Assembly: GCA_009602735.1 (NCBI GenBank)
Contig: WELA01002297.1
Coordinates: 471,961 to 511,636, forward strand
DNA length: 39,676 bases
Direction: 5' to 3'
Source of the DNA: Mesotaenium endlicherianum
Taxonomy: Eukaryota
The position numbers were made by a program, and so were the translations under genes. Under the pieces are notes generated by a model that searched no databases, was not told the origin of the DNA, and saw only the letters and a program-made list of their open reading frames with translations. The number at the start of each line of letters is the position of its first letter. Within the stretch, counting starts at the first letter, position 1. Below are positions 1 through 38,969 of the stretch, one piece after another.

Positions 1-323
1 GATTTGGGCCTCGTTGATGGCCCCACTGAGGTGCAAATAGTGTTGGCCTTCAAGTCTTTGTGAAGAAAGTAAACACTCTCGCCTAAGTTGATAGCCTAAA
101 CCAACATATGCCGATCCTTAATGCTCATCTTGGGGTGAGTCTTTCTCCTCTTCTTCACACTACCTTCCTCTTTCACTGGCCGTTGGTATTTGTGGCCGTA
201 TACCTTGATTAGTGATCTAACTATCCTTATTCGAGCCCGTTTTTTTGCTTCCCGAGGAGGTTGCGTTCTTCTTATACTACCCCCACGATCCATTGTCCTC
301 CACTCGGGTTCATAAGTCGCCAA
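1..323 (-). pseudogene. 5' part of an unknown basic protein gene running off the window
   Basis: ORF 96-323 is K/R-rich (KKRRK). The frame stays open past the TAG at 96-98 to base 1 (AINLGESVYFLHKDLKANTICTSVGPSTRPK). It is divergent from the + gene at 1092. Confidence 0.4.
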
Positions 324-1091
324 TCATCCCTGACACGCCCTACATTTTGGCCAAAATAATGGAGGGAGAATTTTGAGATGGCAAACTTCAGAGGCAGTGT
401 TCAACTTTCAAAACCTAATTTGTTGCGTGTTAGGTGCAGTGACCTGTAGGCGCAAACACAAGTGGCACCTGGGAGGTGATGTAATTGCAAGTTAAGTGAA
501 GTAAAATTACAAATGAAATTGGCCAACGACCACATGTGACGCGCCAAAATATTGCATCATTTGGCGGTTATGCCTATGCCAATTACGGTATTTTGTTGTC
601 ATTCTCTTTCGCGATGTAGGGCGTGTGCCCGACCCGATAATCCGATCAATTGAAGTCTGGAGGTACACCAAGTCCATATTTTTCTCGCGCTTGGTTGGTT
701 ATTGCACAGAAGTCGGACGTGGTTGGACGCCTCTTGTCACCTTCGACATCACATGCGACGTCCGATCACGTCCAATCGTCAAACCTGACCTCCTGTAACC
801 CAAAAACAGGGTACGTGGCCAACGTGGACCACCGTGGACTGTGGCAAACCTTCAACCTCGTCCTTCTATACCCTCCCAAGCAAAAATGCTCATGCAGAGC
901 CACGGCTTCATGCTAGTGGCTCATGTGATAATTCGTACAAGAGGCGCATTTACAATGCTCAATTTCTGTCCAATAGCATCCATTTCCGCCGTGACGTCCA
1001 CTCACAAAAGCTAAGCGATCAAACGTGCCTCGAGCAGACCGTGAAGGAAACCAGCGAATGTGATTCGAGAGCACTGCATCCTTCACCAAAA

Positions 1092-3204
1092 ATGTGCATG
1101 CCGCATGGCGCATGGTGTGAATGCCTTGAGCTCAACGAGTGGCAAAGCTCATATGAAGACCTTTGCTCGAAGCTCGAAGCTCGAACACGAGCATGCATGG
1201 CAATAATCGAGCAAAAGAAGGATGCAAAACGGGTTCACCGGCTTCCATCTTTCATTAAATTATGCCATTCCAACAATCTCTGGCCTCCACTCTCCCATTT
1301 CTTCCCTCTTCCTACGGCTACCTTCATTCCAGGCATCTCTCAATTCCAAATATGAGGCCCTGTGGTTGAACGTGCTTCCATCCTCACACTAGGGTATGCA
1401 AAATATGCAAGGTTTTTCATAGGTCCTGTTCAGGATCTGGGGCGCACAGAGGATGACAAACTCCCACAATATGCAAATATTTTCCAATGCCTAGCCAATG
1501 GCCAAAAAATTGGTGTGCTGGTTATAGACAACGCCAGAATCAAGTATGTGAAGGAACCGTTGTACGGTATCACATACTTGATTGTGGGTTATCTCAAGGA
1601 CTTCCATGCTATGGTGTGTGAAGCTGCTCTGTCAAACGGCTGCTGAAATGAATCGACTTACCAAAAAGGCGATTAGCAATTAGTTAACTTCTTTATATCA
1701 GCAAGTAATCTTCATGGTATTTCGTGTTGACTGATTAAACAGCAAAGGACAAGACACTAGCAGTGTACAATACTCGCGAGTCAAATGCAAGTAAACTACC
1801 ATCAATAATGCAACCAGTAAACTCATACATAAGCAAGGCTAGAAGACAATGCATATTAATGGCTTGTCGCCTTGGATCCAGATATCTCACAGTAAGCAGT
1901 ACAAGAGAGTTGGCCTCGTTTCCGAATGCCGAACTCGAGAGCATTCCTAGCATATGTACATGGAATGAGTTTACTGTTCAACGACAAGTGCGATGGCACC
2001 GCCTACCCAGGAGTTAACCACGTTGGTAGGACCTCGGTTAACCAAATCCACCGCCATCTCCCATCATCCCGATTCGCCATCCATCTTAAGGATGTCATCT
2101 GGCCATTCATCTAGCACACCACACTTAGATGTGTATCTAGGCAGTTCGCTGCTACCGAGTACGGAAGTTAGGTGGCTGTCAAAGAATGCGCCAGCAAGCT
2201 GACCTGAGCTGACTTGAGCCTGCTGCTCCCGATTGAGTCATTAAATTGATTATTTACTAAAGTTCAGCAGACTCAATATTAGTTAAAGTTCAGCAGGCTG
2301 AACTTATTTACCTATTATATTTAAATGAATATTATATCTACCAATATACTGTTTCATTACAGCTGCCGTGTGATCATGAAGAGGGAGGGTAGGCACTACT
2401 TTAGCCGCACTACGGTGCCGCGTGGTTATCCAGTGAAGTTCAAGGCGGAGTGTAAGGATCGCTCAGAGGAGTTGTCCATCGGGGAGGTGTTGAAATCCAC
2501 CAAGTGTAATTTAAAGTGTACGCTGGTGTGCCGTCCGAGAATTAAGAGAGTCGCAAACTTGCATGATATGAATAAGGAGTCTTGGACAGTGGGGGTCACA
2601 ATCATGGAGGCCTATCTCATTAACACTGCAGCCGCTCAGGAGTATAGGCATGGCAAGTGCCTGACGGAGGAAGAAGTATCTGAGCGCCGATGCAACATCA
2701 ACGTGGATCATCTGCTCCGCGGGCGCGCTGTTGGTGCTGAAGAGGCCGGGAGGGCAGAGCACAATTCTTGTCGTGTGGCTGGCGCTGTCAGAGAGGTTTC
2801 CCCGGCATCAATCTTGCGCTCGCGTAAGGTATTATTTCCAGCACTTCCCATGGCACTGGAGCCGCTGGTCATGCCGCTTCTCCTGCTGCTACCGCCGCTT
2901 GGGTGTTGCGGCAGACTCATGCTGTTGCTACAGCTTCAATATTATCCCCTGCTGCTGCTGCTACTCCTGCTACGCTCTTGCACCTGTTCCCGCTAAAGTG
3001 TTGCCTGCCTCTGCTGCTGTCACTGATGTCGTCCCCGGTGATACCACTGTTGCCAATGCTGAGGCTGCTGCTGGTCTTGCTCTTGCTACTCCTACTGCTA
3101 CTGCTGACTATGTTTCCGTCAATGGGGCAACCGAACAAGCAGCTCCTAGCGGGAAGCTCATCATCTGCTGGTGTACGCAGGCGTGGTCAGTGAGACTTCA
3201 TTGA
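1092..3204 (+). pseudogene. Unknown protein gene split by a solo LTR; Ala/Pro-rich tail
   Basis: ORFs 834-1355 and 1362-1646 share a frame and are separated by one TGA. Removing the LTR (1644-2361) and one GCTGC copy fuses ...EAALSNGC to RVIMKREGRHYF... of ORF 2325-2996 in frame. The 3' end (GCT-rich, 2900-3200) is uncertain. Confidence 0.65.
1644..2361 (-). mobile_element. Solo LTR of gypsy family B (718 bp) with 5-bp TSD GCTGC
   Basis: Ends are TGAAATG...CATTACA. GCTGC is present at 1639-1643 and 2362-2366. Homologous end to end with LTRs at 35361-36078 (718 bp) and 28025-28740 (inverted). Confidence 0.93.
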
Positions 3205-3739
3205 CATCAAGACCAGAGGTAGGCTGGTGTGCTCTTGCTTGCACTGAAAACATGTAATATGTCTCCACCTGACGGACCTTCACTTAGATATCCATGATGC
3301 TTGTGAACATACTGAGGACTGAATGAAGAAATAGGATAGGTCTTCCTCCTCCATGATGTTTGTGCCTCCAATGCCTAGAGTTAGCACATGCATCCCTATT
3401 TTTATCAACACTTAAGTTTATGGAGTTTTGTTGCAGTGTTGGACAGGGCAGTTTCATCCTCAGGCACTGAAAGCGCCGGCATGTCAGTAGGCGGTCAGCC
3501 CGAGCCCTCCGAAGGTGAAGACTAGGATGACAGGGACTGGGCGGACCTCCTTGGCTAGAGTGAGGAGCAGTGCACGTGCTCGGATGGAAACTGTTGGGGG
3601 GAATGTGCACCCTAAACCTCAAGTTTGGCTGGACCGAGGAGGAGAGGTCTCTGTTGTGAATAATAGCTGTGTCATGCAAATGCATGTCAATAGCACGTGG
3701 ACTTAGAGGGCCTAATAGTTGTACATATAGGCACGTTAG

Positions 3740-4197
3740 AGTTGCATGGCTCCTCTGCGAGCTCCTTGTATAATACTTGATGCTGATTCTTAGGCATGTT
3801 GCTTTAGTTGCACTACTACTGTGCAAATTGAAGGTTTGTACATATGCTTTTGAGATGCTTGTGTAAGAGGTGTCGGCTCCTTGTTGCTACAGAGTACCAA
3901 ATTTTTTTCCTCCATTCTGTAGGGAAGTATTAGGCTCTTGAGGGTCTTATGCAATTGACAAGTAACCAATGTACTTTCATGTGTGTATGTGTGGTTGTGT
4001 GATGTTGAGTCACCAACAACAACAAGCAATATAATCTTAGAAATTATGCGTATATACTTGTGTTACTGTGCTGCACTAAATGAAGCATTTACAGTCGCTA
4101 TGTCACTACTTAATAGTTGAATAATACACCTGCTGTTGTCCACAAGAGAACTCATTAATTGATCAAAATGTATATACAAGTTGAGGTCCTGTACCCT
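3740..4197 (-). repeat. Diverged ~450-bp repeat, copy 1 (inverted relative to 10932-11410)
   Basis: Shared blocks include GGTACAGGACCTCAACTTGTA, ACACAAGC(A/T)TCTCAAAAGC(A/G)TATGTACAAA and TACAAGGAGCTC. Begins immediately after the transposase stop codon. Confidence 0.8.
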
Positions 4198-4200
4198 ATG

Positions 4201-7200
4201 CTATATGTAGTCCTCGATCTGAAGTAGCTTTGGTGCGCGGCTGTGGAATTGGTTGAGAAGAAATTTGTTGCACGAGTTGGCATTGCGTATCATTTTCAAT
4301 ATACACCCGCCCGGGGGTTCTCTGCACTCGCCTTTATCCACCAACTTCCCGTGCAACTTGCACTCTCTCCACACGGCACAGCTTGTCCTGGCAAGGGCCC
4401 ACTCTTCGTCAACATCTCGACCAATGTCCTTCTTATCATTTCTGATGACATACCCGGGTAGATCCTCCATCTCCCAGTAGTACCTTTCCACCTGCACCGT
4501 TGCAATGATTTGGGACGTCGGTATGACGACTGTATCCGCCTCTAGCGTGAAGGCCGGATGCAAAGTGAACTCGTCAATCACCAAGCGTCCTCTCCGATCG
4601 CGTACAGGCTTGAGCGGCCTCACCAGAGCCCATAAATACTCCGTGGTTGTCCCGGGGTTCTCCCGCCTGTCCATGGGATGAGGGATGAGGTGCATGACGT
4701 GCACAAAGAGTCTTTCCACTCTGGCAACCCACACCTGCCTGTTCTTTCTCTCGGCTCCTGTGGCTAAGCCGTTGGCGGCCACTGACACGTGATCCTCTAC
4801 TCTGAAGGTCTCGTTGGGCCCTCCCTTGGAAGCCTTCTGGCACATGTATATGCGCCCATTAATCCATTCTTCGACAGAGACAATCTGCCGGCTCCCGTCC
4901 TCCTGGAGGCCATCACCCAGGACCTTTTCGTCGAACCTCAAGAGCGAGCGGTACTTCCACTCCATGTCCTCCTTTGTGAGTCCTATAGTCTCCAACTCCA
5001 CGAAGGAACGGTCTCGATGTTTCTCTATCCAGCTGCACAGTTGCAATTTGAGGGAGGAACAGAATGAGAATCATTCATCACCACTTTGCATGCCTCAAGC
5101 TTTCCCACCCATGTCGATGGCATGCACAATAGACTTGCAGATTGCATGCGACGAGAATATGCAATATGAAGCAGGAAGGTATAGGAGTAATACCAATTGC
5201 CGATAGCCCCATGGCAGAGCAAGACTGAAGCCACCTGCACCCGCATGTAGACCTCCCTGGATCCGGCGGCCTTGCTATTGTGCACCAGACGTGTATTTTC
5301 TTCCCCCGCATGAGGTCCCACAGCACCGAGTCTTCTCATAAAACTACTTCCTCTCACTGTCTCCACCACATGATCGGCCATTCCCATCAGCCGAGTGACT
5401 GTGTGACCGAAATCCCTGAAGATGTCCATCGTGCACATTCTCTCCAGAGTCCTATACAGTAGCCACTTGGATCTGTCCTGGCAATTCCTGTTATTGAGAG
5501 TCGGCATGTTGTTCTTCATGTACTTGTGCTTGCTCTCAAAGGACTGGCCCCATAGGTGAGCCATAGGGCCGTACTGCTTCAAGGCAGTGCTGTAATGTAG
5601 CAGAGAATGCATGTTGTGACTCGCGTCGTTGAGCTGAGCCGTGACCCCTGCCTCGGCATCGGCCTCTTGCGCAGGGAATGCCTCTACAAAGTCTCTGTGG
5701 AAGTCCTTTGCTAACCTCTCAATCTTGTTGACGTCCCTCTGGCTAATGGAGCTGGCTAAGCAAATCTGTATGAGCTTGCACAGCTTCACCCAGAGCTTCA
5801 GTGCCTTCAGCCTGTGCTTGTACTTGTCCGTGTTGAAGTAGGTCTATTCTGTGTGAAGCGTCTACACCCTCGGATGACAGAAAGGTTGCAGCAAGGCAAG
5901 CATGAGGGGTGCGAGGGCCATAAATGTCATCCCTATGTAAGTGCCGTGATCGCACATGGGCTTCTTCACCTTGTTGTCGCCTCTGTTCACCCTCGCCGTG
6001 TCGGCCCTGTAGTTGAACGCCATTTTCTCGAAAGGCGTCCAAGCACAGTGCGTCGCACTTCCCAATGTGTTCTTTGCCAACGCCTTTGTGATACCGAGTG
6101 CAAACAGGTGAAAAGGCTCCAAAGGCATCTGGAGTATGCGATTCCATCCGGGCAGTTCCTCCAATGGACTCTTCTCCCATCCATAGCCCTTTTGACCTTT
6201 TTCCACTCCATCCAACCTCTTTGCAGACGCTGCATGAACTGCCCTCAACCTCTTCACATCCGCCTCACACTCCCTCTTTGTTCTCTCCCCAAAGTTTTCA
6301 TCCAGCAACTCCTGTCTGGACTCTTCCCACGATCTCTTTTTAAATGCTGCTTCCTCACGCGCCTCCCCAACCTCCACCTTGTAACGCCTGGACTCTTCCT
6401 CAGTACGCGGCACAACATCATTCAACGTCAAGTTCCATTCTTGGAGCCCGTTCTTGCGTACGGTACACACGGGGCACAGGAAGTCGGAAGACTGCCCCTT
6501 CATCATCATACTCTTAGTCCTCTGTGGAAAACCTTGATAGAAGAGCGTCATCACCCTCACCAGACACGCTTGCTTGAGTGGAGCAAAATACATCTGCACG
6601 CCCTCCTGTAGTTGCTTCAGGTCTTCCCTCACGAGGGACTCGAGCACCTCACCATCCCAAGAGTCCATGCTGCCGAATGCAATGAACCTAATGATGCTGG
6701 TATCCCCGATGACACTGCTATCCAAATTTTGCAAGCGGTAGTAGTACCCCGTGACACTCTGACCCTTTTTTCTGAAGATCTTGAAAGCATCCACTAATAG
6801 CAATATGGCCAGGTTCACTACGGGCAGGTTCTTGGGATTGTGTGCCTCTCAATTGGCGTCTGGGGTACCCAGCTGGAAGTTCACAGCTGGTGCCGTTACC
6901 CTCCTGAAAACTCCCTCGTCCTTTTGTTTGAGAGCATCTACACACCAGTAGGTCTCCTTGCCTTCCACTACCCAACCGTGTTCCGACCGCTCCCAGCCTA
7001 ACTCCCCCCAGTTCCCCCCCAATGGTGGTGCACCATGAACAACTTCTCAGGTGCGCAGAATGAGGCTAGGGTCCACTTTCATGGGCTCCTTAGTGAGCAA
7101 GAGCTCCCCGTGCCCTTCACCCTTCTGCATCACGTGAGCACTTATGACGCGCTGTCTATCTGGTTGGCTACTGTCAGTCGACAAGATCTCGTGCACCAAG

Positions 7201-8311
7201 ACCATCACCTCTCGGCCGGCGGCACCTGCGCATGCAGAAAGGCCCTCGTCATTAATGACAAATGAAAGAATAATTGAGGAGAAGGAACTCCCAGGCACAC
7301 AGCAAGCTGAACTCCCAGACTCCCATGGCTAATATGCGATGTGGCAAGCAGGGGTTGCAGTGATATACCCGCTACTTGTGGGCTCATAACTAGGAGTTAC
7401 CCCAAGGCCACCTTCATTTCCTCCCCCCCTGTGTGCATTCGACAGCTGTACTCCCGAAAGAGCGGATGGCCAGTTACATATGGGAAATTGTAGAGCCCCG
7501 TCATCTCTCCGTCCACTAACACCTCAGGCTTGAAGTGGATCTCCCTGCTCAATAAATTGTCCCCCACCATCTCCGCCAGACTTTCGCTGACACGCTTGGA
7601 CCACAGCTTCTCCCCGCTTGGCAGCAGGGTTTCTTGCACACCATGCTTGTGAAATTTGGCTTTCGTCTTGTGTATGTCGTCAATCAAGCACCTTTCTTTG
7701 TCCTCTGCTCTGTAGAACTGGCTATTCAATCTCCACGCCTCTGTCAATCGTTTGGTTTTCTTAGTACTTACATTGTGCAGGATCTCGTAGCCACACTTGC
7801 ACAAGCACGTCGCGCTTTTGAACTTCCCCCGCTCTTCCTCCGTGGCCTCTAATATGATTTCGTCACCACAATTCAAAGCTAAATTTCCTGCTGCGTGTGC
7901 TGCAGCCTTGGCAGCCCTCTCCGATGCCCGCATAGCTGCGTGCTGTTCCCGTACCTCTGCGTGTAGTGCTAAATTAGCTAGTCTTTTGGCTGCCTCTTGT
8001 ACTCTTAAAGCATCCTTGCGCGCTGCTTCTGAGGCTTCTATTTGCACTTGCCTGAGATCTTCCTCTTCCTGCCTTAATTGTTGGCGTGCCTCATTTACCG
8101 CTAGCTGACTAAGGTGTGCTATCTCATCACTGTTTTCAACATGTCTTGCCCGCTCTTGTTCTCTGCGCAATGCTTCTTCATCTGCTGATTCAGCTCTACA
8201 GGCATGATGACAAACCACTCTATACCTCATCCATTCTCCACATTGAGTGCATTGTAATTTCTTATTTTGATGTGGTGCTTCACCACTGCCCAATATCCTT
8301 GGCATCTCCAC
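4201..8311 (-). pseudogene. CMC (CACTA/Mirage/Chapaev)/Plavaka-like DDE transposase, probably spliced, with premature stops
   Basis: Motifs occur in the expected order: LLVDAFKIF..SVTGYYYRLQNL (first D), YQGFPQR..CPVC (second-D position reads G; CxxC), LEPFHLFALG, HNMHSLLHY..YGPMAHLWGQSFESKHKYMK (E), then a beta-rich C-terminal domain ending FLLNQFH. ORFs 7047-7298, 5862-6818 and 5025-5789 form one frame broken by stops at 7047, 6849, 5862 and 5844. The N-terminus has a CxxC..H..C finger and a coiled coil. Probable introns lie near 7226-7400 and 5033-5240; splice phases are not resolved. Confidence 0.85.
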
Positions 8312-9003
8312 AACAACTCTAGTCCTCCTAGTTAAGTGTACCCCTTATGCATTCACCCAAAAACTACGGTTTTACTCGTGAAGAAGACGCCTCAACTGAT
8401 ATCTCCTTGGTGAAGGCAAGAGTATTATTGTCTTCACCTGATACAAGGCAATTTATTATTTGCCTTTGGATAGGTGCCGTATTTTTTCATGTTATTGATC
8501 GATTGCCTGGAAGTTCCGAGCCGACCAATTTATAGTACGTTGCAAATTTTTGGCAATGACGTGACCGTTTTAATTCCGTTGAAAAAAGGATCGGAGACAA
8601 GGAATTTGTCACGGCACGTGACCAACTTTCTGGTCCGTTTCTCTCCAGCGATTTCATTTGACGGACACAACATCCGACCACGACAATCGCAACACTCACA
8701 ATTGCACACACCACGAATGTGCATTCACTGACACGTATCGTCGTGTTTTGGGAGGAGTGTAACAAATGTGAAGGGCACACAAATTATTCCGTTGTGACGA
8801 GTCGCAGACGTCATGACATTTATGCGAGCAAAATGTGAGTTATCATACATTGTCCTCCGCGCGAGTGTCGCTCACGTTTGGGAGTCGGGATATGGCGAGC
8901 TCATGTGAAGTAATTTTTATTAGCAAATGCCACTTTTGGACAATAAAAAAAGGTACAGGAAGTTAGCTCTCTGCATGCTCTACATGCTGCTTAATCTTGC
9001 TTC

Positions 9004-9571
9004 ATGCAGGAAGGGTGGTCGACGAGGCAAAGAATGGCGTCCATTGCCATCTCAGCGGTGGACAACAAGAGCAACGACAACAAGTCCAACGCTAATAGCA
9101 GTAGTAAGAATGAGAAGGTTATTTCTCCCTCTGTTCTCTTTAAAAAGTCTCAATTGCCCAAAATTATGGCTCATCATTCAGAGTTGTACCTCCTGCAATC
9201 TCGTGATGAGAGTCTGAGCCTTGAGCAGAGACACAAAGCCTTGGATTGGCATGCCTTATACAAAGGGCTTGAGGAAACTTAGGAATGCTTCAAACGACAG
9301 GCTCTTGAGGAGCAACGAGCCGAGTCGAGATTTAAACAAGGGAGGCAGGCAGTAGAGAACTTGAGGCATTGGTTGGCGGAAGGCAACACTATGGTGGTAG
9401 AGTTTCACAAGCACAAGGGCCCGAGTTTGTGGATGTGGAGCGAGAAGGTGAAGGAGGGGGCCTGCTTGGCCATGCAAGATACATGATCAGTGCAACTTAA
9501 GTGCATGTGTGAAATGCCCTGTGTTGCTCAGTTCTTTTGGTCCGCTTGTTAGTTTAACAGTGGCCCAACTC

Positions 9572-9632
<61 letters not shown>

Positions 9633-10870
9633 TGCTATTTGTATGTTTGCAATTATTGAAGCAGAAGAGGAGGCCGGCATCCCCGTCGACTGAAGCACCG
9701 ATGTGCAAGGGACCGGCAGGGAACCCAAATCTGTCCCCGGCCACAACCGCCAAGAAGAAAGCCAAAACTCCATGAGAGGTATACACAGCCTCCTGACACC
9801 TTGAGAGCATGTGCATGCTAAACTGTCAACTGACTCTGCTTGTTGGCCACACGGTCTTAGAAAGGGCTCAACTTCCATGTTATGAGTGCAGGCATTCCAC
9901 GTGAAGCGGAGGTTACCATTTCAGTCCCAATGTGGGGGAAGAACAAGGACGGCTATGAACAGGAGTGGGGAGATTGCAACAACAAGAAGTCTCCACAGAA
10001 CAGAGACTCCGGCCTCAACAAAAAAAACTTGTAGACTCTGCACATGGTGAGTAGGTGCATGGTGAGTAGGTGCAAAATTAATAGTGTCTCACTTCATTTG
10101 TACTCCATCTGCATGCTCATGCACATTGTAGCAATCTCAGGCCCTCCTGCATTGGCTGATAGATCACAAGCAACGAATGAGCAGGCCCTCTCAGCGCAAG
10201 CGACACTCTGATGCTGCGACCTGTGACTGCAGAGAAGATTACTCCAAAGGGAGGCTCTTGCGGAACGTATTCGACCAGTTTAAAAAGTAGGACGCCAAAA
10301 TTCAAAGCGCCGCCACGTAGGAGGCCTCCAGCTAAGAAGTCAGCCCAGACAAACAAGAAAATGAAGCAGGCTGCAACTTCAGGCGAGGGTTCCGCTGCTC
10401 CAACAACTAAGAAGAACCAGCAACGAAAGGAACACCGCGTGTCCTCCGTGGAAGAAGAGGACACGGCAACACAGCGGGGTGAGGCAGAGACGACAAGCTC
10501 AGGTGGGCAAAAGATGGATTGGACTCCCTGTTGCACGCAAGTTCGCTGATGCACGCATATCTCAAGAGTCCAGCATCAATGGTGCACCTCTCGTGAACAT
10601 CTGCACAAGGGTAGGTCTACACATGATTGTCACTTGAAGAAATCGGAGCGCTTGTTAGGGATGATAGCATGCCAATATTGGGGCCACTAGAAGATACATT
10701 GTCACCCGTTTCATTTAAACTGAGCAGACTCTGCTTACAAACCGAAGCCCCGGGAGCTGCGTGCTGTGGAGCTGCTTGCTGTGGACTGAACAAGGCAGGA
10801 GCAAGAGGAGTGCCAAAGGCCTGTGTACAATAAGAGGTGCTAAAAGAGGTGATCTGGCATCGTTTAGAGA
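9004..10870 (+). pseudogene. Unknown multi-exon gene (charged helical N-terminus, K/R-rich low-complexity middle)
   Basis: ORF 9004-9282 continues in frame past TAG (ECFKRQALEEQRAESRFKQGRQAVENLRHWL...). Further coding-like pieces lie at ~9665-9775 and 10211-10549, separated by intron-like segments, one containing the (CT)n tract. No domain recognised. Confidence 0.45.
9569..9629 (+). repeat. (CT)n microsatellite, ~30 units
   Basis: Directly visible, with one interruption. Confidence 0.98.
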
Positions 10871-10931
10871 GCTAATGCAACAGTATGGCGGAAATATTTG
10901 TTGTAAGAAGATTTGGGGTACCAGAGTATAT

Positions 10932-11410
10932 GGTACAGGACCTCAACTTGTACATTTTTATATAAAATAAAGCAACAAAACTCTTGTCCACAGGTACTGT
11001 TGTTAGTAACATATACTGATTCCATGATGCACACCGCAAATTTGCTAGGAGCAGAGACTCCAATTGTTGCAGTGCAGGACACTAACACAAATACACATGC
11101 ATACTTTCTGATATTACATTATTGTACATTGTTGGTCACTCAACTTCACACAATCACGCATGTGCATTGGAGGAGGCATGAAAGTGATTTGGTTTTCAAC
11201 TGTTACTTTGACTGCATACATCCCCAAGAGTAAGGAGGATAAAATGATGCTACTCTGTAACAACAAGGCGCCTACACCCCTAACACAAGCTTCTCAAAAG
11301 CGTATGTACAAATATTTGACTCAGACGCTAGTGCTGCAACTAATGTAACCTACCCGTGAAACAATATGAACTACTGTACAAGGAGCTCAAAAAGGGGCTT
11401 TGCAACAGTA
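10932..11410 (+). repeat. Diverged ~450-bp repeat, copy 2 (inverted relative to 3740-4197)
   Basis: Same shared blocks as copy 1. The incidental translations PTPLTQASQKRMYK and PTPLTQASQKHMYK reveal the match. Confidence 0.8.
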
Positions 11411-11643
11411 AGAGCCACATGTGTACAACTATTGGGACCTTGTAAAAGGTCCTCACCTTGCATAGCTTCCATTGCTCTCTGCTTCTAGGTTGAAGCATCA
11501 TCATCCTCCGACTTTGCCCACCACAACTGCACATCCACAATAGCATTTAGTATGTTAGATGGAGGCGCAACAGTGCCAAAACTACCTGCCATTACATGTT
11601 GGGTACAATTAACACAAGAATTGTCCACCTCAAATCCTTCACA

Positions 11644-12424
11644 TCAAGAACTGCCTACCTCCACTCCTCCCATGTAGCAAACGGAGCACATGTTGAAACT
11701 TAAACCGCTTCCTTCCACAGCAACATCCTCACCCTCAGCTTCTTCTTGCACGCGTTTGAGTGCCCATGTATCACCCAGACACTTTCTGTGGGACTGAATT
11801 GCTTCTAATCTCAAGTCGCAATTCACCCAAATTGTATGAGGCTGTTTCTGACATCTGTACTAACTCCTTCATCCATTGGGCAATATCATCTGTGACTCTA
11901 TCAAACTTTCTCTTCCTATTTGGCCCCATCTCCTCAACTGGATCGTCATCAACTGGCTGGAGAGCTGCCACTACATCCAAAGTTGGCACTACATCTCCCC
12001 GTAATGCCTCAAGTTCTAATATTGGAGCTTTGCCTTTGTCTGATGTTGATGCCATGTCCTCCCCTAGAGCTAGCTAACGAGGCCTGCTTCTCAGACAGAA
12101 GGCTTGATCATAGAAGGCTGCAGCCTTTCTTTTGACATAAGATAAATGCTGATTGATGGTGATGTTTATATCTAATTCCGCCGTTGCATCACTCTGGATT
12201 ACCTCCAGACGAGTGATGTTATATGCAAGACTACTTTTCAAGGCTCCAATCCTTTTGATTTCCAATTTGGTTTCCTCTATAAATTCCTGCAGTTCATCAC
12301 ATAAATTGCTATGGCGCTGTTTCTTAGTTGGACTCACCGGTCCCTTTTCAGCACTACTTGTACCTCGTAACCCTTCACCCCCTTTGCTTTTGGACATTGG
12401 CATGTACTGGCTGTTGTCGCTCAC
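11644..12424 (-). pseudogene. Unknown coiled-coil protein gene
   Basis: ORFs 12074-12424 and 11771-12055 share a frame, separated by one TAG. Contains a heptad-like segment ELQEFIEETKLEIKRIGALKSSL and NLS-like PNRKRK. ORF 12587-12919 may be an upstream exon. Confidence 0.5.
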
Positions 12425-13715
12425 TCACAAGACAATGCAGTGTATGAACGATAAAAGCTAGCACAGCTCAAAGAGAAAGAGGGCCTGACTTTGTGACCAG
12501 CCTGAAATCTCAATTTTTGATATCGAATGTATCACGAGCACCACAAGGAACAAAAAAACTCTCCTAACATGCACACAACAGTCTATCTACGCACTGGCCG
12601 AGGGTCCCATCTGTGGATACATTTGTCTTCCATGTAGGAATGTACACCTGAGCCACTTACATGCAGCCATGGCTCTGCATGTGCATTTAAGAACAGGGCT
12701 CGATAGAGGTATTGAAGGACAAGGTTGGATGTTTCCGACTCGCAGGCGCAAGCGCTCGGGTTTGACGATTGAACGTAATTCGACGTCAGTGATTATGTCC
12801 AAGAACCAAGATTCGTTCAACCACGTCCAACCTCTGTGCACAGACCAACCAAGCGTGAGCAAAATATGAACTTTGTGTTGAACGTACTTCAAGTGACCAA
12901 AATATCTAGTCACGCACACGCTTTACTTCGCTGAAGCAAATGACAACAAGATACCGTGAATGGCATATATATAACCGCCAACTGGTGGAACATTTTGCGG
13001 GCCACAGCAAGATGTCCTTCAGAGGTATTCACACAATTATATTTCTAAATAGTATACCACTTGAAAATGAGATAACCTTCTGTAATAATTTGGTTACGAA
13101 ACATGGCCTTCCCGGAGTTTCGATCCTTCGTCTGCTCGTTCGGGAAATGTGCATGAGGTTGACAAAAACATTATGTTTGTTTCAGGAGCAATGCAATAGT
13201 ATGACGGAAATTTTACGTAAATGAAGTCTAAAAGGGTGGAATGGCTTCGGGGTTGCGACCCGACCATTATCACGCTCAACAGGGTCGCATGTGTGGGCAC
13301 ATCAGCTTTTCCACTACATCATACTGGGACATTCTGCCAGTGACGACATTCAAAGTTCATTACTAATGACGTCCTATCATCCACCGAGTACCACTGAAGT
13401 CGAAGCTAGCCCACCGTCGATGCCAACATCACCGCCCAAAGATGCCAAACTCAGTAGTGTAATGCACCTTCGCAGGCCACCTTCCCTCCATGAGCCAAAT
13501 TTGCAAATTTGACGCTAATTTTTTAGAATGACTTCCTTCCAATCTCACTTCATTTTGTATCCATAGAGTGCAACATGATGGGCCCTTTTAATGTCAAATC
13601 CGTTTCTCTCCCCATTTTAAAAGTGCACCACCGCTTTCAGTCACCGAGCTACTACAGACACGCCCACATTGTGTCATAATATATAGCACTAACACCAGAC
13701 AGGGAAATCTTTGCT

Positions 13716-14482
13716 ATGGTGGATGAGCACATGTCAGAGGACTCTACTTTCGCAGAATGTTTCTGTTCCATATGTTTAGGTGAGAACGCGCTTGTGTTTT
13801 TCTTGTTGTGCGAGATATTCAGTGCGATGAGCACGAGGTCAGCAATTTAGATTTTAATACTCTGCACAATTTTAAAAGAGGTCCTGGATTGCATCCTCAT
13901 TTTTGTTTGGCAGATGTTATGAACCCACCCGTGGAGGTACAAGATTGCGGCCACAGGTTATGCAAAAGGTGTATTGAGACAGCACTTGAAAAAGGGTAAG
14001 TCTTGGTCTTAATAGTTATTTTCCCTCAATGACTGGTGCTGCAATTTATTAATGGCACTCTAATGTGTAGCTGAATATTATGTGCAGCCCACTGTCATCT
14101 GCAGGATTCTCCACACTTGTGAGCCACATAATGTTCTAACAGCGGCATGTTGCCGTTTTTGCTCGTGCACCGATTTCCTTGCAGTAAGGGCAAGTGTCCC
14201 CTTTGTAGGAAGCCTGCCACCCGACGGGGATGCCGACGGTTGGATGCTCGTTTGTGTGCACTGATGCACAAACTTCGTTCCACTACCAACGGTTGTACAC
14301 TTGTCAACACTTTAAAATCGTTAGAAACAAGTGACTGCGTGGGTGGCGACTATGCCAACGAAGACACATAGTGTGTTACTTTAACGTTGTCCGAATTGAT
14401 GGGACGCCTGCAGACTAGAACAGCGCGGCTGTGCTGCACTGCTGCTATGCTTCTTTCACACACAAATTGCTGGCCAAGTAGA

Positions 14483-14544
<62 letters not shown>

Positions 14545-15507
14545 TGCAAACTGTCAACCATTTGGAGTTCTTTTCACAAATTGAGCAAGATACTGCACTA
14601 CAGCTCATTACACCATTTTCTTACATGTGACAGTCTCCAATGGCAAGCCGCCTCTCGACGAGGTTGTCTACTATCCGATGAGCAGTAGCTTCATCTGCGT
14701 TCCTGCTGTCTTCTTTGGAAAAGCGTGGGCACAGAAAGAGGTGGGCATACATCATGCTGACGTCTTCTTTAATGGCCAGTGCATAGAGGTACAAAAAGGC
14801 ATATTTGCAACTTTCTTCTGTGATGACGACGAATCGTTTTGGGTCTCAGAAAAGAACGTCAAAGATGATCACATTAAGGAGGATGAGGCTGTGTACAGCA
14901 GGGGTAGCACCGCAGCTCTTTCCGAAAAGTGTAGAACCTTTGTGGTCAACAACCCCAGCCTGTCGTCGGAAGCAAACATTGTAAAGACCAGGAAGGCAAA
15001 ATTGCCTCCCTACTTGACTCTGTTCTGGGGGTTGTTTAGGGTTAGTCCCATTTCGCGCGATTGTCAGTCTGATTCTTCATTCCAGCCGGCTCAATTTGGT
15101 AGTGCTACTAGTTGTCATAGTTCAGGGTAGATATGGAGGGGAAGGTCCTTGGAATACAACGATGGCTGTAACCATAGTCCCTTGTACTGTATCGCCCACT
15201 CGTGTACAGATGTCAGTGTGTTAGATAGGTATTCAAGATCATGTCTCTTCCCCTTGGGATCAAGCAGATTTACAAAAGTTAATGATAACCCGCAGCAGAA
15301 GCCTGTTGTTTTTTAGTGGCCTCGTGGAAGTTGTATCACAAGAGCCTAGCACGTATGAAATCACAGCTGCTTGTTCAATTGAATTCCAGCACACCAACAA
15401 GCGTTGAGTATGAGGTCGAGGTCCAGTACTTTCTGACAGGGTACTCTACCTCTGAGTTTTGTGCAGTGAATTCAGCGCATGATCAAGTCTGGCAGCATTT
15501 CAAATAA
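13716..15507 (+). pseudogene. Spliced RING1-like C3HC4 RING E3 ligase gene fused to unknown domain X
   Basis: Exons 13716-13779, 13914-13995, 14185-14477 and 14634-~15228 have phase-compatible GT-AG introns. They give CSICLDVMNPPVEVQDCGHRLCKRCIETALEKGKGKCPLCRKPATRRGCRRLDARLCALMHKL. Premature TAGs at 14369 and 15128. The third intron (donor GTAGAG) and the last exon (~15317-15507) are less certain. Confidence 0.8.
14480..14541 (+). repeat. (GA)n microsatellite, ~30 units, inside a predicted intron
   Basis: Directly visible. Confidence 0.98.
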
Positions 15508-15684
15508 TCGTCACTCAAATGGTCACTAGTAGAAGCAAATCACCCACTAAGAAACGTCACAACATACTCACTGCAAACTACAAAGTGCTATTTTAACTTC
15601 CTCCCCACACACTAGATGCCGTCATCAAAGGAGTCCTATCAAGCACCTGTTCTTATAGATCTTGGGATACTTGTTGCCCCTCTG

Positions 15685-17951
15685 CTAGTGAAGGCCGTCA
15701 ATCCCCACCAGCGTGCTCACATGCTTTCCGTTACACTTGTGCTGATGCTCGCCGTGTGCACTTTTCCCAGAAAGCCACGTGTTGAAGGCTGATGCCAACG
15801 TGTCACAAGTAGGATGACCTGAGTCTTTCTTTACTCTAATCTCCTCCTCCACAAAGTGGCCGAAAGGCAGTGCGCACCTCAGGACACCACAGCTGCCTCT
15901 CACGGGCTTTAGCAGGTTCAGCGAGGCCCACTGTTTGTTTGTGAGGCCACCCTTGACTCGTGGCGAAGCGCAGGGCTCACTGCGTGTGGACAGCGCATCA
16001 ATGGCCGCCTAGCAGAGGGACGCACGACATGTCGCCAGCAACGCGTGTCTCAGGGGCTGTGCCAGGCTTCCAATGCTTGCCCACTCCTTGTCACACCGCG
16101 GCCGATTGAACCACCGCACGAGTTTGCTCTTAGCGCACCTTTGTTCCTCAATCGACCTGTGCACGAGAGAATTGGGTATGGGAGCGACGGGAGGTGCATC
16201 TACCAGCGCCGACACGTGGACCGCCTGATGTTTCCTAAAATCACCACTCTGCATCTGCCAGGCAACCTTCGACCAGGCGGCTACCTCGTGCAACGGCGGG
16301 TCCTTGCTAAAATCGTACTTGTCTTCGTAGGCATGAGATATTCTACTCTTGATCCATGCCGAAAGGCCTTCCAAAATGGCATTATCTAAGTGGTAAAGCT
16401 GACGCTTTGCGTGGGCCATACAATTTGTCCAGCCAATTGGGAATCCTTGTAGGGTCTCTACGTCCTCCACGCCTAGCCCCCGGAGGTGAGAGGTGCGGCC
16501 CACCTTCTCTACCACGACAAGGAGGTTGGAATTCACGCACGTAACTGTGGGACAGAGGCCGTATGCCTTGTTGGGCAATGCCTCATTCAATCCCGATACC
16601 CACACGCCCTCGTACTCTGTCTTCTCCACCAGGCTGTGATAGGCACAGATGCATATTTCTGTCTGATTGCAAAACGCGCGAGGAGTGAATAGCAGGTTGC
16701 GCGAATCTCCCCAGCGCTTTGCAAGAATGACGACCTGCTCCCTAGCTTGGGGCTGTCCAAAGGACAGGCATTGCACGATTCTGTAAGCCCAATGGTAACC
16801 CAAGGCGTTCAGATTGTGAGCGACATGGGATATATAGGGAGTCCCACTTTGTGTTTTTCTCGTGAGCAGCCCCGGGACATTCTCCAAAAACGACGATAGG
16901 CACTCTCTGTTATTCTAAGAGGCGCCACAGGTGTACAATGAGACTAATTCGCTTCAACGACGCAACCTTCCTGCCTGTGTTACCTCTTGTCAACACATCT
17001 TGGCAGGGAAAGCCCGCCAGGACAAGGTCGATGCCTGGGGAAAGACTGCCCAAGCTCACTACATCCGAATGGACTTGAACACCAGGAAAGTGCTCCTTGA
17101 GGAGGGCCTGACAGCGGGGATTACTTTCAACAAAGACACATATTTTGTGCCCTTGGACGTGGAATGGCAACTCAAAATCACCTATACCAGCAAACAGACT
17201 GCACACTTTCAGGGGTACTCTTCTTTGCCGTCTCTCTTCAGGTGAGACCATTTGCCCATCAGAGTGGGGCAGTACACGTATGGCAGACAAGATTATACCA
17301 AGAGCCCAAGCTTAGCTTAGTGCAATGGACTATTGTGCCAATATTTGGTGGGGAGTCATAAACACCACTAGCAATAAAATGGGGATGTAGGATGCTGGGC
17401 AGTTTGCAGCGCCTAATAACCTCTATACTAGCATCACTGTGCAGCCTAGGGTTCTTGAAGACAAAAGCATCTACGTAGTTGTGTAAATCATATGTGCACT
17501 CAAATGTAGCACGCGTTGTAATTGTGGGTACGTGATATCGTGACACACTATCTTTGTCCACCCAATAATAGTCGCCTTCATTTCGATGGCCATGGCGGTG
17601 GAATATGGCTCCAAAGATATGCAGCTTCATCCTAAGCAAAAGCCTTCATAGAAGATAGTGTCAGCCTGCCCGCCATGCTATTGGGTCGCCCACTCCTCTC
17701 CAAAAAAGGGGGCGGGAATGTGAATGTAGGATGCTGCCATCTCGAATGGGGGGGCCTGAAGGGAGTGCAAGACAAACATAACATGAGTAGCTTCAAGGCA
17801 GGTGTCATACGTCCAAGTTGAAGATCCGCTACTTAATCAAACGAATACGTGCCATGTTTGCACCAAGTGCCATGCAAGAACTTTGGCTATTGTCGTCATA
17901 CCATGTATCGTCGCAAAGGCTGTGCCTCACGTGAGCATAGATCATCTTCAT
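15685..17951 (-). pseudogene. C5 DNA cytosine methyltransferase with N-terminal domain X (disrupted)
   Basis: Motif I SLFAGIG, II VE, III SDV, IV AGFPCQD, VI LENVPGLL, VIII QPQAREQV, IX LQGFPIGWT, X LDNAI. The WAYRIV..FG.PQ and GD.R..L segments resemble compact bacterial-like/algal Dcm-type enzymes rather than MET1, CMT or DRM. Lesions: TAA at 16910, an extra T at ~16886-16890, frameshifts near 17630 and 17250, and TAGs at 17829, 17678 and 16009. A phase-0 55-nt intron lies at 17756-17810. The frame continues past 16009 to 15685. Confidence 0.9.
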
Positions 17952-18605
17952 AGTCGGCACAGGTCGGCACTTGCTCTTTGCATGTACAGCGTAAGGGCTC
18001 CCCCCTAATCGTCGAAAGCGTACGACGTTCGACGACAACAAACGGCATTCAACACTTACGGTGAGTTCGTTTTTAACCGCCACCTTAGTAACGACACGCC
18101 ACCCATGACGGATGTCATTGTGGAGGCCCAAATAGTGTCGTGATTCAGTTCAACGACGTGCACTACCATCAAACCAAGAGATCATGCTGGATGTCGGAGT
18201 GAATTGTGAAATTGTGTCATAATCTCAGAAGAATGAAGCCAATCATCCCAAATTTGCGACTGCGGATCGAGAGTGGAAGACATATAGCAACGTGCCAGCC
18301 GCAGACGGCCGAAAAACACAGCAATTGATTTCGAAGTTCCCTCTGAGGTGGATCGGCGAGGAGCGCCGGAGGATTTTGCTTTCCATGGACAGCATAATCC
18401 ATGTGAGGCCTCAAATGGAACAAAATTCATTGGAATGGGCCGATTCAGCTCGAAATGGAGTTCCATTTTGTAAAGTGGTCAAAATAGAAACGATCTAGCC
18501 CATGTCCAATGTCAGGGTGAGGTGAGATTTGGTTTTATATAAGCACTCTATGAAGTAGCTAAATAACCCTGGACAGATGGAGTTGACATGTTTGATACAA
18601 ATCAT

Positions 18606-18825
18606 GGCGTGCAGACACAAAAACACTCCTCTCACCGTCTCCATCATCAAGAGGTAGGCAGACGTCACCCCCACATATACAGGTAAGTGGGCTGTACCCC
18701 ACGAGAGACAGAAGTATTATGAGGGGGTACGAGTCTTGGCGTGCAGACACGAGAAGGGCCCTCCTGTCACCATCTCCACCCGCAAGAGGTGAGCACATGT
18801 CACCCCCGCATACAGTGATAAGCTC
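18606..18825 (+). repeat. Two diverged direct repeats, period ~132 bp
   Basis: GGCGTGCAGACAC...TCACC.TCTCCA...CAAGAGGT..GCA...GTCACCCCC.CATA begins at 18606 and at 18738. Confidence 0.8.
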
Positions 18826-19977
18826 TTTAAATGTGCTGGGGGGCCTTGGTGTTTCTCCTCTAAGGGCTACATTTGCGCAATGCTGTGCAGGGACACGCCC
18901 ACCAACACAGAGTAGTGGGCAGCATGAGAATCGAGATGCCTCAATGAAATGGAGCTACAAGAAAGAGGGCTTCAGGCGCACTATCAACACCGCCTCACAG
19001 CAGGGGAGGCAACATGTCAGGCACAAAGCGAGCAAGGCACGTGAACATGCCCGTGTATGGCCAGCTACTCTTGGCCGTGAAATGTGCATTGCTACAGTTG
19101 TGAAAGATGTTCAGGAGGCTCTCTGAAATTGTGACTTTGTGCTATGCACAGGCCTGATGAAGAGGCATGTAAATGGCTCAATTCAGAATGCAATGGCAAG
19201 TACTACAAGGGCAAAAGAGGTCATTCGGTAGGCCACGCATAGCATGTAAGGGATTGGAGGCTTGCCTGGCAAGACATGTACCATAGGGAGCATGGCACGT
19301 GTAATGGATAGGGCACGTGCAGTGTGGTAGGCAGTGTAAAAGCACTAGCTTGGAGTGTAATTTATTTGAGTGTGAACGGAGGGTGGCATAGGAGCTTTGA
19401 GCTCGAGCGTGTGTTGTAGACCCAGCTGTTAAGTTGGTTGGATGCCGTGTGGCTCCCTGTGCATTGGACACATTTGTCAAGTTCAGATTAAAATTTATTA
19501 TGTTGCAAAAACGCTTCGCGATTGTCGGTCGTATTTTGCCCGCATCTATGCATCATGAAAATGACGCAGCACAATAGAAATTACACAAATGGAAGTGTTA
19601 CACTAATCGATGCTCGATTGAAGCGCTCTAGTGTGGGCCTGAATCTCCCCATTTGTACCTATTACCGCTAGCAACGCGCACCGACAATCTCCGCTCCTCC
19701 GCTAATCACTGCTGAGCTGCGGAGAATCCATCCTTGATTTGAAACGAAGTACATTCTCCAGTAGATAAGCGTAGTAATTACTGCGCCGCTTGACGGAGAG
19801 ACGGATCTACGCTCCGAGCGACGAGGCTGAAAAACGGGGGGGTCCATTAAAGTGTCGATCTCCGGTACCACTTTTGAACACTCCTCCGATTCCTTAAAAG
19901 CGGAGATTAGGTACTTCTCCGCCTAATTCGTTTCGTTTGGATATCAACGATCTCCACTAGATTGGTCTCAGAGTAAA

Positions 19978-22079
19978 AGCTGGCGCTGCAAATAAAGACT
20001 CGCTCGATCGAATAAATCCCTTCTCTAGTAACTATGTCAACAGCTTCTTCAACTCATCCAACTTCGCAAACGATTGTCAATAAGCGGGTCTTACTGGTGC
20101 CTTGCTCCCTGGTTACAACTCACTTTTGTGCTTCACGGCTCTTTGTGGAGGAAATCCTGCAGGTAGGTCCTCAGGAAACACGCATTTCAATTCCTCCAAC
20201 AGCACCTTAATTTGGGCAGGCATCTCAGCAGGCTTCTTCTTCTCTTGAGCAATTGAGCTCTGTTCCTTCTGAGCAAGGGGATCAGACACCACTACTTGCT
20301 CCTCTGGTGACGCGCGCTCTCCCAAAATTTTAGAATTCACGCTTGCTCCATCTGATGACCGAGCCAGGGTCCGCGAAACAAGGTCCATCTCCTTCTCTTG
20401 ATTTGCCTTGCATAGTTTCTTAATTTGTAGGCTCGACAAAAGACAATTACTTGTGGTCGTATCTACCTCCACCTGTTTTGCTATCTCCATTCGACCATCA
20501 CGCCCTTGGACTTTCACTTGTCCTGTGCTCCAATGCACTCAAGGGTTGGTTTTCCTTAGCCATGGCGGCCCGACATCACCTCATGGTGACCTAGCTCTGC
20601 CTGCTTCATAACTTCATCAAATTGGTGCCCCGCTACTTCCATGTGAATAGCTTTCGTAGGTGCACCACACTTGAGTCTCTGTTCATTTGCCAAAATTGCC
20701 TCCTTAGGCTCATTATGCCTCTGCACAAAGATTCGCCACTCTTTCCCCAGCTTCTTGTGCACAAAGTTTGCATTTGCGCCACTGTCAACCATACACTTCG
20801 CCTTGTTGCCGTCTACTACTCCTTACACGATAATAGGCTTGTCAACATCTCGTCTTTCGCTTCTTAGCAAGCTCTTGGGTGTAACCTTCTTGTGAGTTCC
20901 TTTCTTCACGCCAGTAGACACCCCAGAACGACGTACTGGCGTCCTCCTTTTTCCTGCTGTTGAGGTTGCTTCGCCTTCACACGACAGTCTCGAGCAAGAT
21001 GCCCAAGCTGGCCACAATTATTGCAGGGTCCTCTCGGCTTGTAAATTTGCTGCCTGCGCTGGTTATGGACAAGTCCCAACTCCATAGGTACTGTACCTTG
21101 TCCAGTGGTGCCTGGTGCTTGAGAACCAAACAATCAATGTCCTCCAAAGTTGTGGTCGCCCCAATGCCTCTGATTATACTCCACAGCGTCAACTCTTGTT
21201 TCCAATGCCATCATTTCTCCAAGACTGGTAGGGTCTTTGAGCGCCACTTCCTTGGCCACAGTTGGCTTGAGTCCCCTCTTGAACTTGTCCATCATGTCCG
21301 ACTTGTGCATGGATGGACGTTAAAGCACCAGCTCGTTGAAGCGCGATACATACTTCTGAACGCTTCCTCATTGACAAAGGCCCACCAATAGATCTTAAGC
21401 GGTAGCCTCAAGTGCAATAGGTTAAAATTGCTTCTTCAAACCTTCAAAAAACTAATCATTAATTGCAGGAACTCCAGCAGCTGCTCTTCTCGTTCATACC
21501 AAGCTCCGGCACTATCCTGGAGTAAAGTTATGACAAAGGCGACTTGCCTGTTGGGCGTGAGCGCAGAATACTCCATAAACTTCTTCATTCCAAAAATCCA
21601 TTGAGGAACAGGTGGCAATCCACGCTTTGCAGTATACACTTCAGGCTTAGGCGCACGCACTCTTGATGCAGGTGCAATAACTGGTTGCACCACTGGATTA
21701 ACATGAATTGGTGGTACAACAGGTGCAGGTGCCGAACTCGTCGAAGCGGCGTTCCCAACAACAACTTGCACCATTCTCTCCACCTCCGCGCACATATTTT
21801 GTTGAAATAGGGTGTAGGCTTCTCCTCCAATTTCATTTGTCATTTGTCTTAGCATCGCCTGCATCTCTTGTTGCTCTCTCGTCATCGTTGGCGCTGCCTG
21901 CTGCTCCACGCGCTTAACATGCTCGACATGTTCGCCTCCTCCAGTTGCCGACTGCAACTCCATAATATAATATGCAAACTACCCCAGCTCCAATACCAGA
22001 TGAAAGGGGCGGAGTGCCCCAGTGGAAGCGTAGTGAGTCACGAGGAAAAGAATTAGTTACAATCATATTAAAAAGTGCA
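19978..22079 (-). mobile_element. Ty3/gypsy family A, copy 1: 3' end of 5' LTR, PBS, gag, protease, start of RT (truncated)
   Basis: LTR end at 22001-22079. PBS TGGTATTGGAGC at 21987-21998. gag starts at 21963, with zinc knuckle CNNCGQLGHLARDC. Protease MVDSGANANF. RT N-terminus LLEKGFIRSSESLFAAP ends near 19980. Confidence 0.9.
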
Positions 22080-22813
22080 TGTAAGGTCATAGCTTTATAA
22101 AGTGCATTTTTTGAGTTTCGTGAAAGAATATTTTGATTCTATAGTAGTGTAGAGTGCATTTTTATGGTTATTGTGATATAAAGTGGAGCGAATTTGGTCA
22201 GGTGTTCAAAGAGTTATGAATTTCCAAAGTTTATTTAGTCTTGAGGTCGGTTGACGACTGTCCTTAATTCACAATGAGCGCAACGGTCGGATTGATCGAC
22301 AGCGTTGAGTGGTCAGGGCCGTTAGAGTGAATTTGAACCTTCACGTAACTTTGGCTGACGTGGCGTGCTGACTAGGTCAAGTTACCAAGAAGTTTCAGAT
22401 TAGCCTAGCGCGTCTAAGTTAGTATATTCTAGATTTCGATGCATGCATGTGGACGTCAAATCGGCCCGACACGTCAAATGAGACGGATCTGGTCTACTCT
22501 GGAATATTTTGGGAGGGACAATTTGCCGTTACTAAGCGGCCATCCTGCCTTGAAAGGAGGACTTAGGTCAAAAAACTATAAATAGGCGTAACTTCTTTGT
22601 TTCTAATCAATTTTCACTTCTATAAATCTCTACGAGTTTGTGATGACAAGACCTTTCATTCTAGTTCATTTGTGAGCAGTTTCCTGCTACACAGAATGTG
22701 AAGTAATTTTCCTAAGCTTTGTTAGTGATGTGCTGCTGCACTCTTTAGTATGATTGCAATTGGTTCTTTTCCTCGTGAGTCACTAAGCTTCCATTAGGGC
22801 ACTGCTCCTTTCA
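22080..22813 (+). repeat. 5' LTR of family A (734 bp)
   Basis: TGTAAGGTCA...CCTTTCA. The start is repeated at 25571. TATAAATA lies at ~22578-22585. Confidence 0.9.
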
Positions 22814-22815
22814 TC

Positions 22816-22827: not shown

Positions 22828-22850
22828 TGGGCTAGTTTGCATATTATATT

Positions 22851-38960: not shown

Positions 38961-38969
38961 AAACCCGAG

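Follow-up and report, generated by a model that had tools for sequence, protein, structure and literature searches.

Giant Plavaka elements of the EnSpm/CACTA superfamily have been described in Bostrychia moritziana and other red algae; those of Bostrychia are 17.4–19.1 kb long and equipped with three accessory genes, and the cargo includes a SET-fused N6-adenine methylase as well as a ParB/2OG-oxygenase (bioRxiv 10.1101/2025.02.11.637652; for this and all other cited work, statements refer to the available parts of the text). A second group comprises the TET/JBP-carrying fungal transposons PlavakaB, EnSpm and ESTA. Transposases of the CMCT clade are DDE enzymes in which C(2)C and H(3–4)H motifs follow the second D and precede the last E; CMC/CMCT elements have terminal inverted repeats (TIRs) that are mostly CA..TG with target site duplications (TSDs) of 2–5 bp, and Plavaka termini read TGT..ACA or CATCA..TGATG with TSDs of 2–3 bp (PMC12730594). 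DNA methyltransferase (DNMT) genes are known from the retrotransposons KnitGypsy-Dnmt3, SymbioDIRS-Dnmt3 and SymbioLINE-Dnmt, including a capture of Dnmt3 in Klebsormidium, and the same source refers to DNMT-bearing DNA transposons of marine viruses (PMC5890265). Plavaka-like elements have also been reported in streptophyte algae (PMC13519894); PMC4738411 and bioRxiv 2021.11.30.470311 are cited as further sources for comparison. Here, we describe a stretch of 39,676 nucleotides from Mesotaenium endlicherianum (assembly GCA_009602735.1, contig WELA01002297.1, positions 471,961–511,636 of the forward strand), referred to as the window, of which positions 1–19980 hold a Plavaka/CMC-type transposase, a C5 DNA methyltransferase and a spliced C3HC4 RING gene, with frames without family match between them.

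The locus is real: a decayed Plavaka-like region that exists in multiple copies and holds genes for a C5 DNMT and a RING protein. Established are the three gene identities, the many diverged copies of the transposase and the DNMT, the later insertion of retrotransposons and the neutral decay of this copy. Positions 1–19980 are probably a dead copy of a cut-and-paste transposon that is longer than 20 kb, occurs in many copies and would have moved these genes jointly as cargo. With the Bostrychia elements, the locus has in common a Plavaka-like transposase, the size class (17–19 kb there), several accessory genes including a DNA methylase, and mostly degenerate copies; unlike them, it carries a RING gene along with a C5 cytosine methyltransferase, has tens of copies at most, and its termini were not found. 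A preliminary description of this DNA, made from the letters alone, had called the pairing of DNMT and RING genes on a DNA transposon unusual. It is less so than was stated, because adenine-methylase/SET genes on giant Plavaka elements are already known from red algae. The fungal TET/JBP elements likewise combine a CMCT-clade transposase, with its C(2)C and H(3–4)H motifs, and a DNA-modifying gene, but they carry an eraser of 5-methylcytosine (5mC) whereas the window carries a writer, and the host lineages differ (PMC12730594). Common to the DNMT retrotransposons and the window is a captured, mostly silent C5 DNMT without companion domains; there, however, a Dnmt3 or orphan DNMT lies in the element's own open reading frames (ORFs), whereas here a DNA transposon would carry a free-standing ChloroDNMT-like gene (PMC5890265). 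In the literature, we found neither a CMC/Plavaka transposon that bears a C5 DNMT nor a case of RING1 capture, in a coverage that lacked Repbase and most subscription journals; Supplemental Table 6 of the Bostrychia study may list further cargo.

The transposase is spread over three minus-strand frames through two frame changes, and its core frame contains four stops. Its description as CMC/Plavaka-like was borne out by neighbour clusters, homologues and conserved residues. Specifically, the Atlas neighbours of the stop-free core were Transposase_21, Plavaka and RAG1 clusters, and a full phmmer scan, in which the stops of the core were replaced by X, yielded 17 relatives at E ≤ 0.001 (best 1.5e-08). 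One relative of the transposase is from Mesostigma. There was no direct Pfam match for the window protein; its best relative scored 40.1 bits with Pfam Plavaka (cut-off 26.3). PF18759 (Plavaka) was matched by 3 of the 17 relatives, one of them above the cut-off, Transposase_21 and DUF4218 were matched below the cut-off by two and four, respectively, and nine matched none of these families. When the window protein was aligned with eight of the relatives, D180, C285, C288, H407, H574, H578 and E598 were invariant in all nine rows. C(2)C and H(3)H are retained in the window together with the first D and the last E, and the second D of most relatives is a G here; apart from this exchange, the protein shows the DDE arrangement with C(2)C and H(3–4)H of CMC/CMCT elements, and the multiple diverged genomic copies by which such elements are also recognised were present. 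A word-seeded protein search with the core gave no match at the cut-off, which is a weak negative.

Copy number was assessed from the contigs of two public DNA runs of one sample, X1 and X2, which gave the same pattern. The survey covered positions 1–9560 and 14560–19889, the RING gene lying between these stretches, and a depth of 63–78, obtained from six long diverged contig pieces in X1, was taken as the single-copy level. Relative to this level, the depth was ∼6–19-fold on the transposase and ∼10–30-fold on the DNMT, the contigs representing diverged copies. In X1, the summed depth amounted to 443–1360 in all 13 bins over 4148–8294 (transposase), to 734–2245 in all 20 bins over 14560–18659 (DNMT stretch), and to 443–2230 in 27 of the 30 bins over 1–9560, that is, in every bin outside a solo long terminal repeat (LTR). 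No bin of the surveyed stretches was at the single-copy level, and up to 13 contigs showed another letter at one site. Since diverged copies cover both genes many-fold, the transposase and the DNMT are not single-copy host genes. A single-copy host DNMT belonged to the outcomes that the preliminary description had named as speaking against a mobile element; instead, the DNMT is multi-copy and of the same order as the transposase.

Over motifs I to X, the DNMT domain is colinear with a bacterial orphan Dcm subfamily, and motifs I, IV (PC), VI (ENV) and VIII–X of C5 methyltransferases follow each other in order. Its reading frame is broken by a stop near 16910, a frameshift near 16887 and a stop at 16009–16011. 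A metagenome scan with an alignment of the Dcm subfamily returned 79 loci, some of which code for proteins of 640–1050 aa; of three of these that were scanned, two contained PWWP and two contained Tudor domains, and PPR, Mg-chelatase, COG4 and Mpp10 genes were found as neighbours of these algal-type loci. The long proteins fit the ChloroDNMTs of chlorophytes and charophytes (PMC12344493, PMC4412109); the algal rows are metagenome contigs, taken as eukaryotic from the PWWP/Tudor domains and the neighbours, with no named reference sequences among them. In a careful tree of 32 rows, the window DNMT was sister to eight green-algal host DNMT rows with a support of 100/97, and the same placement was obtained in a quick tree (65 rows, 96) and a FastTree (152 rows, 0.98). 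The 152-row tree precedes duplicate removal, and the two smaller trees combine 8–9 algal rows with random subsets of the other loci. This grouping points to a likely origin of the DNMT from the green-algal host ChloroDNMT family, and a Dnmt3 identity was rejected. The algal profile matched the catalytic part alone, through the target-recognition region, and no PWWP or Tudor domain was detected with it around the window DNMT in six frames of the window. The gene resembles the ChloroDNMTs in that its catalytic domain groups with algal DNMT+PWWP(+Tudor) proteins, but it differs from them, where PWWP is 'often' present, in lacking these domains, in its multi-copy and broken state and in its long branch; the available text of PMC12344493 and PMC4412109 contains no description of a ChloroDNMT inside a transposon. 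Word-seeded protein searches with the C-part of the DNMT gave no match at the cut-offs (weak negatives), and none of the 11 non-DNMT frames of the element, the transposase included, matched within the 224 loci that were fetched.

Two side observations concern the metagenome contigs. A PPR gene lies near ChloroDNMT-type host genes in four algal-looking contigs (L084, L086, L100 and L137), hinting at conserved synteny, and one 10-kb contig (L119) carries one DNMT fragment in inverted form at both ends (1–822 and 9498–10319), which is an artefact of assembly or else a terminal inverted repeat.

These data bear directly on the idea that the DNMT and RING genes are ordinary single-copy host genes that happen to lie next to a dead transposase. 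ChloroDNMT is a host family in charophytes, and the RING gene, with its frame intact after splicing, lies outside the depth survey. For the DNMT, however, this idea is refuted, as the gene is broken, without PWWP, covered by many diverged contigs and almost devoid of RNA reads, while the algal host DNMT genes sit among housekeeping genes instead. Altogether, we regard the host-gene explanation as highly improbable.

For the RING gene, GT-AG introns were predicted from sequence alone at 13780–13913 (134 nt) and 13996–14184 (189 nt). The preliminary description had reported uniform decay; this does not hold, because the spliced RING frame of 110 aa, in which the C3HC4 pattern is complete, is free of stops. 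Against the PDB at E ≤ 1, with the in-frame second intron read through as X, 10 of 11 matches were RING2 chains (best E = 0.1). The two halves of the protein align without gaps to residues 42–70 and 71–98 of 2h0d_B, with the junction at the predicted splice and 21 of 57 residues identical by eye. A RING1/RING2 (RING1B)-like identity of the gene is suggested by these matches as a lead only. RING1/RING2 (PRC1) proteins possess a C-terminal ubiquitin-like RAWUL domain. Downstream of the RING gene lies an open frame (summed depth 1062–1462 in X1), of which positions 14585–14880 resemble by eye what we take to be a ubiquitin-like fold, as would fit a RING1-type C-terminus; searches and folding gave no confirmation, there being no Pfam or PDB match for the frame. 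Two single-sequence folds of element frames were uninformative, with pLDDT values of 34 and 37, the latter belonging to this frame.

Evidence that the blocks of the stretch belong together came from its intergenic regions. The preliminary description had noted internal duplicated segments, and indeed two inverted pairs were found: 474–939 with 13078–12633 (modules P1 and P3) and 3707–4202 with 11440–10925 (modules T1 and T2). Among the 28 pairs of eight intergenic regions, these two alone passed the shuffle margin, with an identity of 74–76%, and the frames between the modules yielded one 17-residue tblastx match and nothing more. Judged by position, P1 is likely a divergent promoter region and T1 likely a convergent 3′ region. 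The modules flank the transposase on both sides in inverted form, so that the layout is mirror-symmetric about the transposase promoter, and because they are common to both sides, the left block with the transposase is tied to the RING block. The fact that the modules are paralogous and the genes between them are not suggests cassette exchange, in which different genes would have been set between common promoter-like and terminator-like modules. A pattern derived from the duplicated promoter module found no match in JGI metagenomes.

Conceivably, the stretch could instead be a pile of at least two independent repeat families, with a plain Plavaka-like element beside a separate DNMT/RING-bearing repeat, the two adjoining by chance. 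The region is indeed a transposon graveyard, the DNMT depth is on average above that of the transposase core and steps down at ∼18660, and no long-range link was seen in other copies within the surveyed stretches. Nevertheless, the left and middle blocks are linked by the inverted modules, and contigs of other copies (8268–8710 and 8641–9054) run from the transposase start through the adjacent intergenic region to gene D. The single-copy level is reached in neither surveyed stretch, and 1–19980 yielded no further transposase and no Helitron or recombinase gene. We therefore consider such a chance pile rather unlikely.

The preliminary description had placed an end of the element at 19633, and this could not be upheld. 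The CACTA at 19629–19633 on the minus strand was rejected as a terminus: the depth is kept across it (405 to 365 in X1, 322 to 375 in X2), a contig of another copy spans 19329–19768, and CACTA occurs at chance frequency in the window (79 versus 70 expected). Likewise, the search for a TIR partner of the 19633 sequence returned 24 matches at ≤3 mismatches versus 28 expected. The trace of the element stops at 19980, where the depth jumps to >30,000, loose ends appear and a Ty3/gypsy nest starts. On the left, the repeat runs on beyond the window, because base 1 is still multi-copy.

With termini not found, dense gene packing and most genes without relatives, the stretch might also be an amplified segment that was not moved by its own transposase, such as an endogenised giant-virus fragment or a 'giant repeat' of the Amoebidium type, in which the transposase is a passenger. 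DNMTs are carried by viruses, and the Amoebidium clusters, up to 50 kb in size with a Plavaka transposase at the flank, resemble the locus as large multi-gene repeats; they are, however, tandem clusters rich in tyrosine recombinases, and no recombinase was found in 1–19980 (PMC11244446). Furthermore, Pfam and PHROGs, neither of which is specific for giant viruses, revealed no giant-virus hallmark gene in 1–19980, single queries of IMG/VR with a transposase piece and with the DNMT C-part found no relative, the DNMT groups with algal host genes and not with viral rows, and the RING gene has spliceosomal-type introns. An amplified segment of this kind is accordingly quite unlikely, and a single transposon with cargo is the reading that we prefer.

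Several observations nonetheless weigh against one transposon. Neither end was seen, with no TIR or TSD found, and no contig joins the DNMT with the transposase in another copy. The summed depth of contigs gives an order of magnitude and no copy number, and it varies two- to fivefold along the stretch. The copies differ in content, because the depth steps down to 365–446 (6 of 6 bins over 18660–19889 in X1) after ∼18660. Some copies have been rearranged or lie beside other sequence, as one 3.5-kb contig matches 122–506 alone and a second one returns from 3627 to 614. The DNMT sits on a long branch (1.7–2.9), and a position with the bacterial Dcm subfamily passes the AU test (p-AU 0.125). The RING2 match is weak at its E value, and RING exon 3 alone best matches BRCA1. 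Mean RNA depth was 0–1.05 on the DNMT region (X5, X8) and 0–1.41 on the transposase (X6, X11), as determined from four runs with 6–24% of each read, and these reads probably stem from other loci, since they show many mismatches or fit partially. Finally, copy-private changes at 51 sites in putative coding frames comprised 37 non-synonymous changes, 12 synonymous changes and 2 stops; these sites are the coding part of the 80 best-supported difference rows, beyond which lie 1059 and 819 further rows, and three adjacent pairs were scored singly. With this about neutral ratio, the present copy decays neutrally and shows no sign of selection. On the other side, and in favour of one element, some lesions of this copy are missing from other copies, namely the stops at 16011 and 5864 (5 and 2–3 contigs per run, respectively) and the frameshift at 16887 (3 contigs in X1).

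The features of the window are compiled in Table 1. According to the preliminary description, the stretch contains a transposase and at least six other genes on alternating strands. Homology supports the transposase, DNMT and RING genes; the remaining genes are open frames only, and the strand alternation rests on these frames and not on homology, because the other frames in 1–19980 had no match at the Pfam curated cut-offs and none in PHROGs.

Table 1. Coordinates, strands and supporting evidence of the features in the window
Feature	Position	Strand	Evidence and remarks
Putative gene A, cut by the window edge	1–349	-	No family match; summed depth 1599 (X1) over 1–319
Intergenic module P1	474–939		Inverted paralogue of 12633–13078; 319/420 aligned bases identical; score 308 versus best shuffled 35
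Putative gene B, split by the solo LTR	1074–2996	+	No family match
Solo LTR, TG..CA	1644–2361	-	Sequence; 5-bp target duplication GCTGC; paralogues 28025–28746, 35358–36078
Intergenic module T1	3707–4202		Inverted paralogue of 10925–11440; 354/478 aligned bases identical; score 303 versus best shuffled 42
Plavaka-like CMC(T) DDE transposase, broken	4201–8344	-	Homology search, alignment, neighbour clusters
Putative gene D, broken frames	9019–10970	+	No family match at cut-off; 9019–9560 within depth survey
Intergenic module T2	10925–11440		Inverted paralogue of T1; same pair
Putative gene E, broken	11440–12424	-	No family match
Intergenic module P3	12633–13078		Inverted paralogue of P1; same pair
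C3HC4 RING gene, 110 aa without stop after splicing	13716–14371	+	PF00097, 24.4 bits versus cut-off 21
Open frame, 181 aa, possibly a further exon or separate gene	14585–15130	+	No family match; multi-copy
C5 cytosine methyltransferase, ChloroDNMT-like, broken, without PWWP/Tudor	15685–17230 (about)	-	Two frames score above the PF00145 cut-off
Broken frames that lie upstream of the DNMT domain and may be its N-terminal part	17259–18149	-	No family match
Putative gene H, beyond the seven genes first described	18577–19400	+	Open frames; 85-nt internal duplication; ∼5–6x single-copy depth
Nest of Ty3/gypsy chromodomain-type LTR retrotransposon pieces	19980–39676		Gag, protease, reverse transcriptase, integrase and chromo domains; depth jump

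The depth of gene H is below that of the DNMT. Within 18455–18660, the summed depth drops from >1000 to ∼400, and at 18519 one other copy continues into retrotransposon sequence; gene H may therefore exist in some copies only. Two microsatellites, (CT)30 at 9569–9629 and (AG)31 at 14480–14541, lie within the element, in or beside predicted introns. E2F-type motifs were not enriched (8 versus 12.4 expected).

The solo LTR was excluded as a part of the element, since its target duplication and an empty-site contig, which joins 1638 to 2362 at a depth of 297, mark it as a later insertion; loose ends were seen at 1644 and 2361. Its family is present three times in the window and is extremely abundant, as its summed contig depth is above one million (up to 1.1 million in X1). 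RNA reads of other copies of this LTR start near 1928. The region from 19980 onwards was also excluded, on account of the Ty3/gypsy nest with its depth jump and loose ends. Within this region, 26271–28740 and 35361–37796 form a 2.5-kb inverted pair with 74% identity, and an open frame of no assigned family (26905–27357 and 36387–37106) beside the LTR may be an additional ORF that the retrotransposon has in its 3′ part. In addition, 20710–22079 and 22737–24109 are gag-protease pieces of one Ty3/gypsy family, arranged head to head and 85% identical.

If positions 1–19980 are indeed one element, its transposase would have cut at termini outside the traceable stretch. The methyltransferase would have been captured from the host ChloroDNMT family and would then have lost its PWWP/Tudor chromatin readers, so that in active ancestors it may have methylated cytosines of the element's own DNA without histone guidance. 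The RING protein might have been a ubiquitin ligase or a decoy acting on host silencing factors. Given one element, such self-marking, as suggested by the enzyme family, is plausible, albeit somewhat short of an even chance; the chief alternative is that host fragments were carried passively. Taken to its full extent, the proposal would be that of a giant Plavaka-like family in a green-lineage genome, with a host-derived ChloroDNMT and a Polycomb RING1-like ligase as exchangeable cassettes set between common promoter and terminator modules, which would mark DNA as well as H2A, either on itself or in host chromatin; in this complete form we deem it unlikely.

Should the one-element reading prove true, a 5mC writer would be added to the TET erasers, adenine methylases and SET domains that are known so far as cargo of CMC-type transposons. 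DNMTs would also have been captured in the green lineage by a second and independent route, starting from ChloroDNMT instead of Dnmt3. Moreover, the reader-less transposon copies would offer a simple way to assay ChloroDNMT activity, of which the available text of PMC12344493 and PMC4412109 gives no description. If the same element does carry a Polycomb-type RING, this would suggest that the transposon acted on two systems of silencing.

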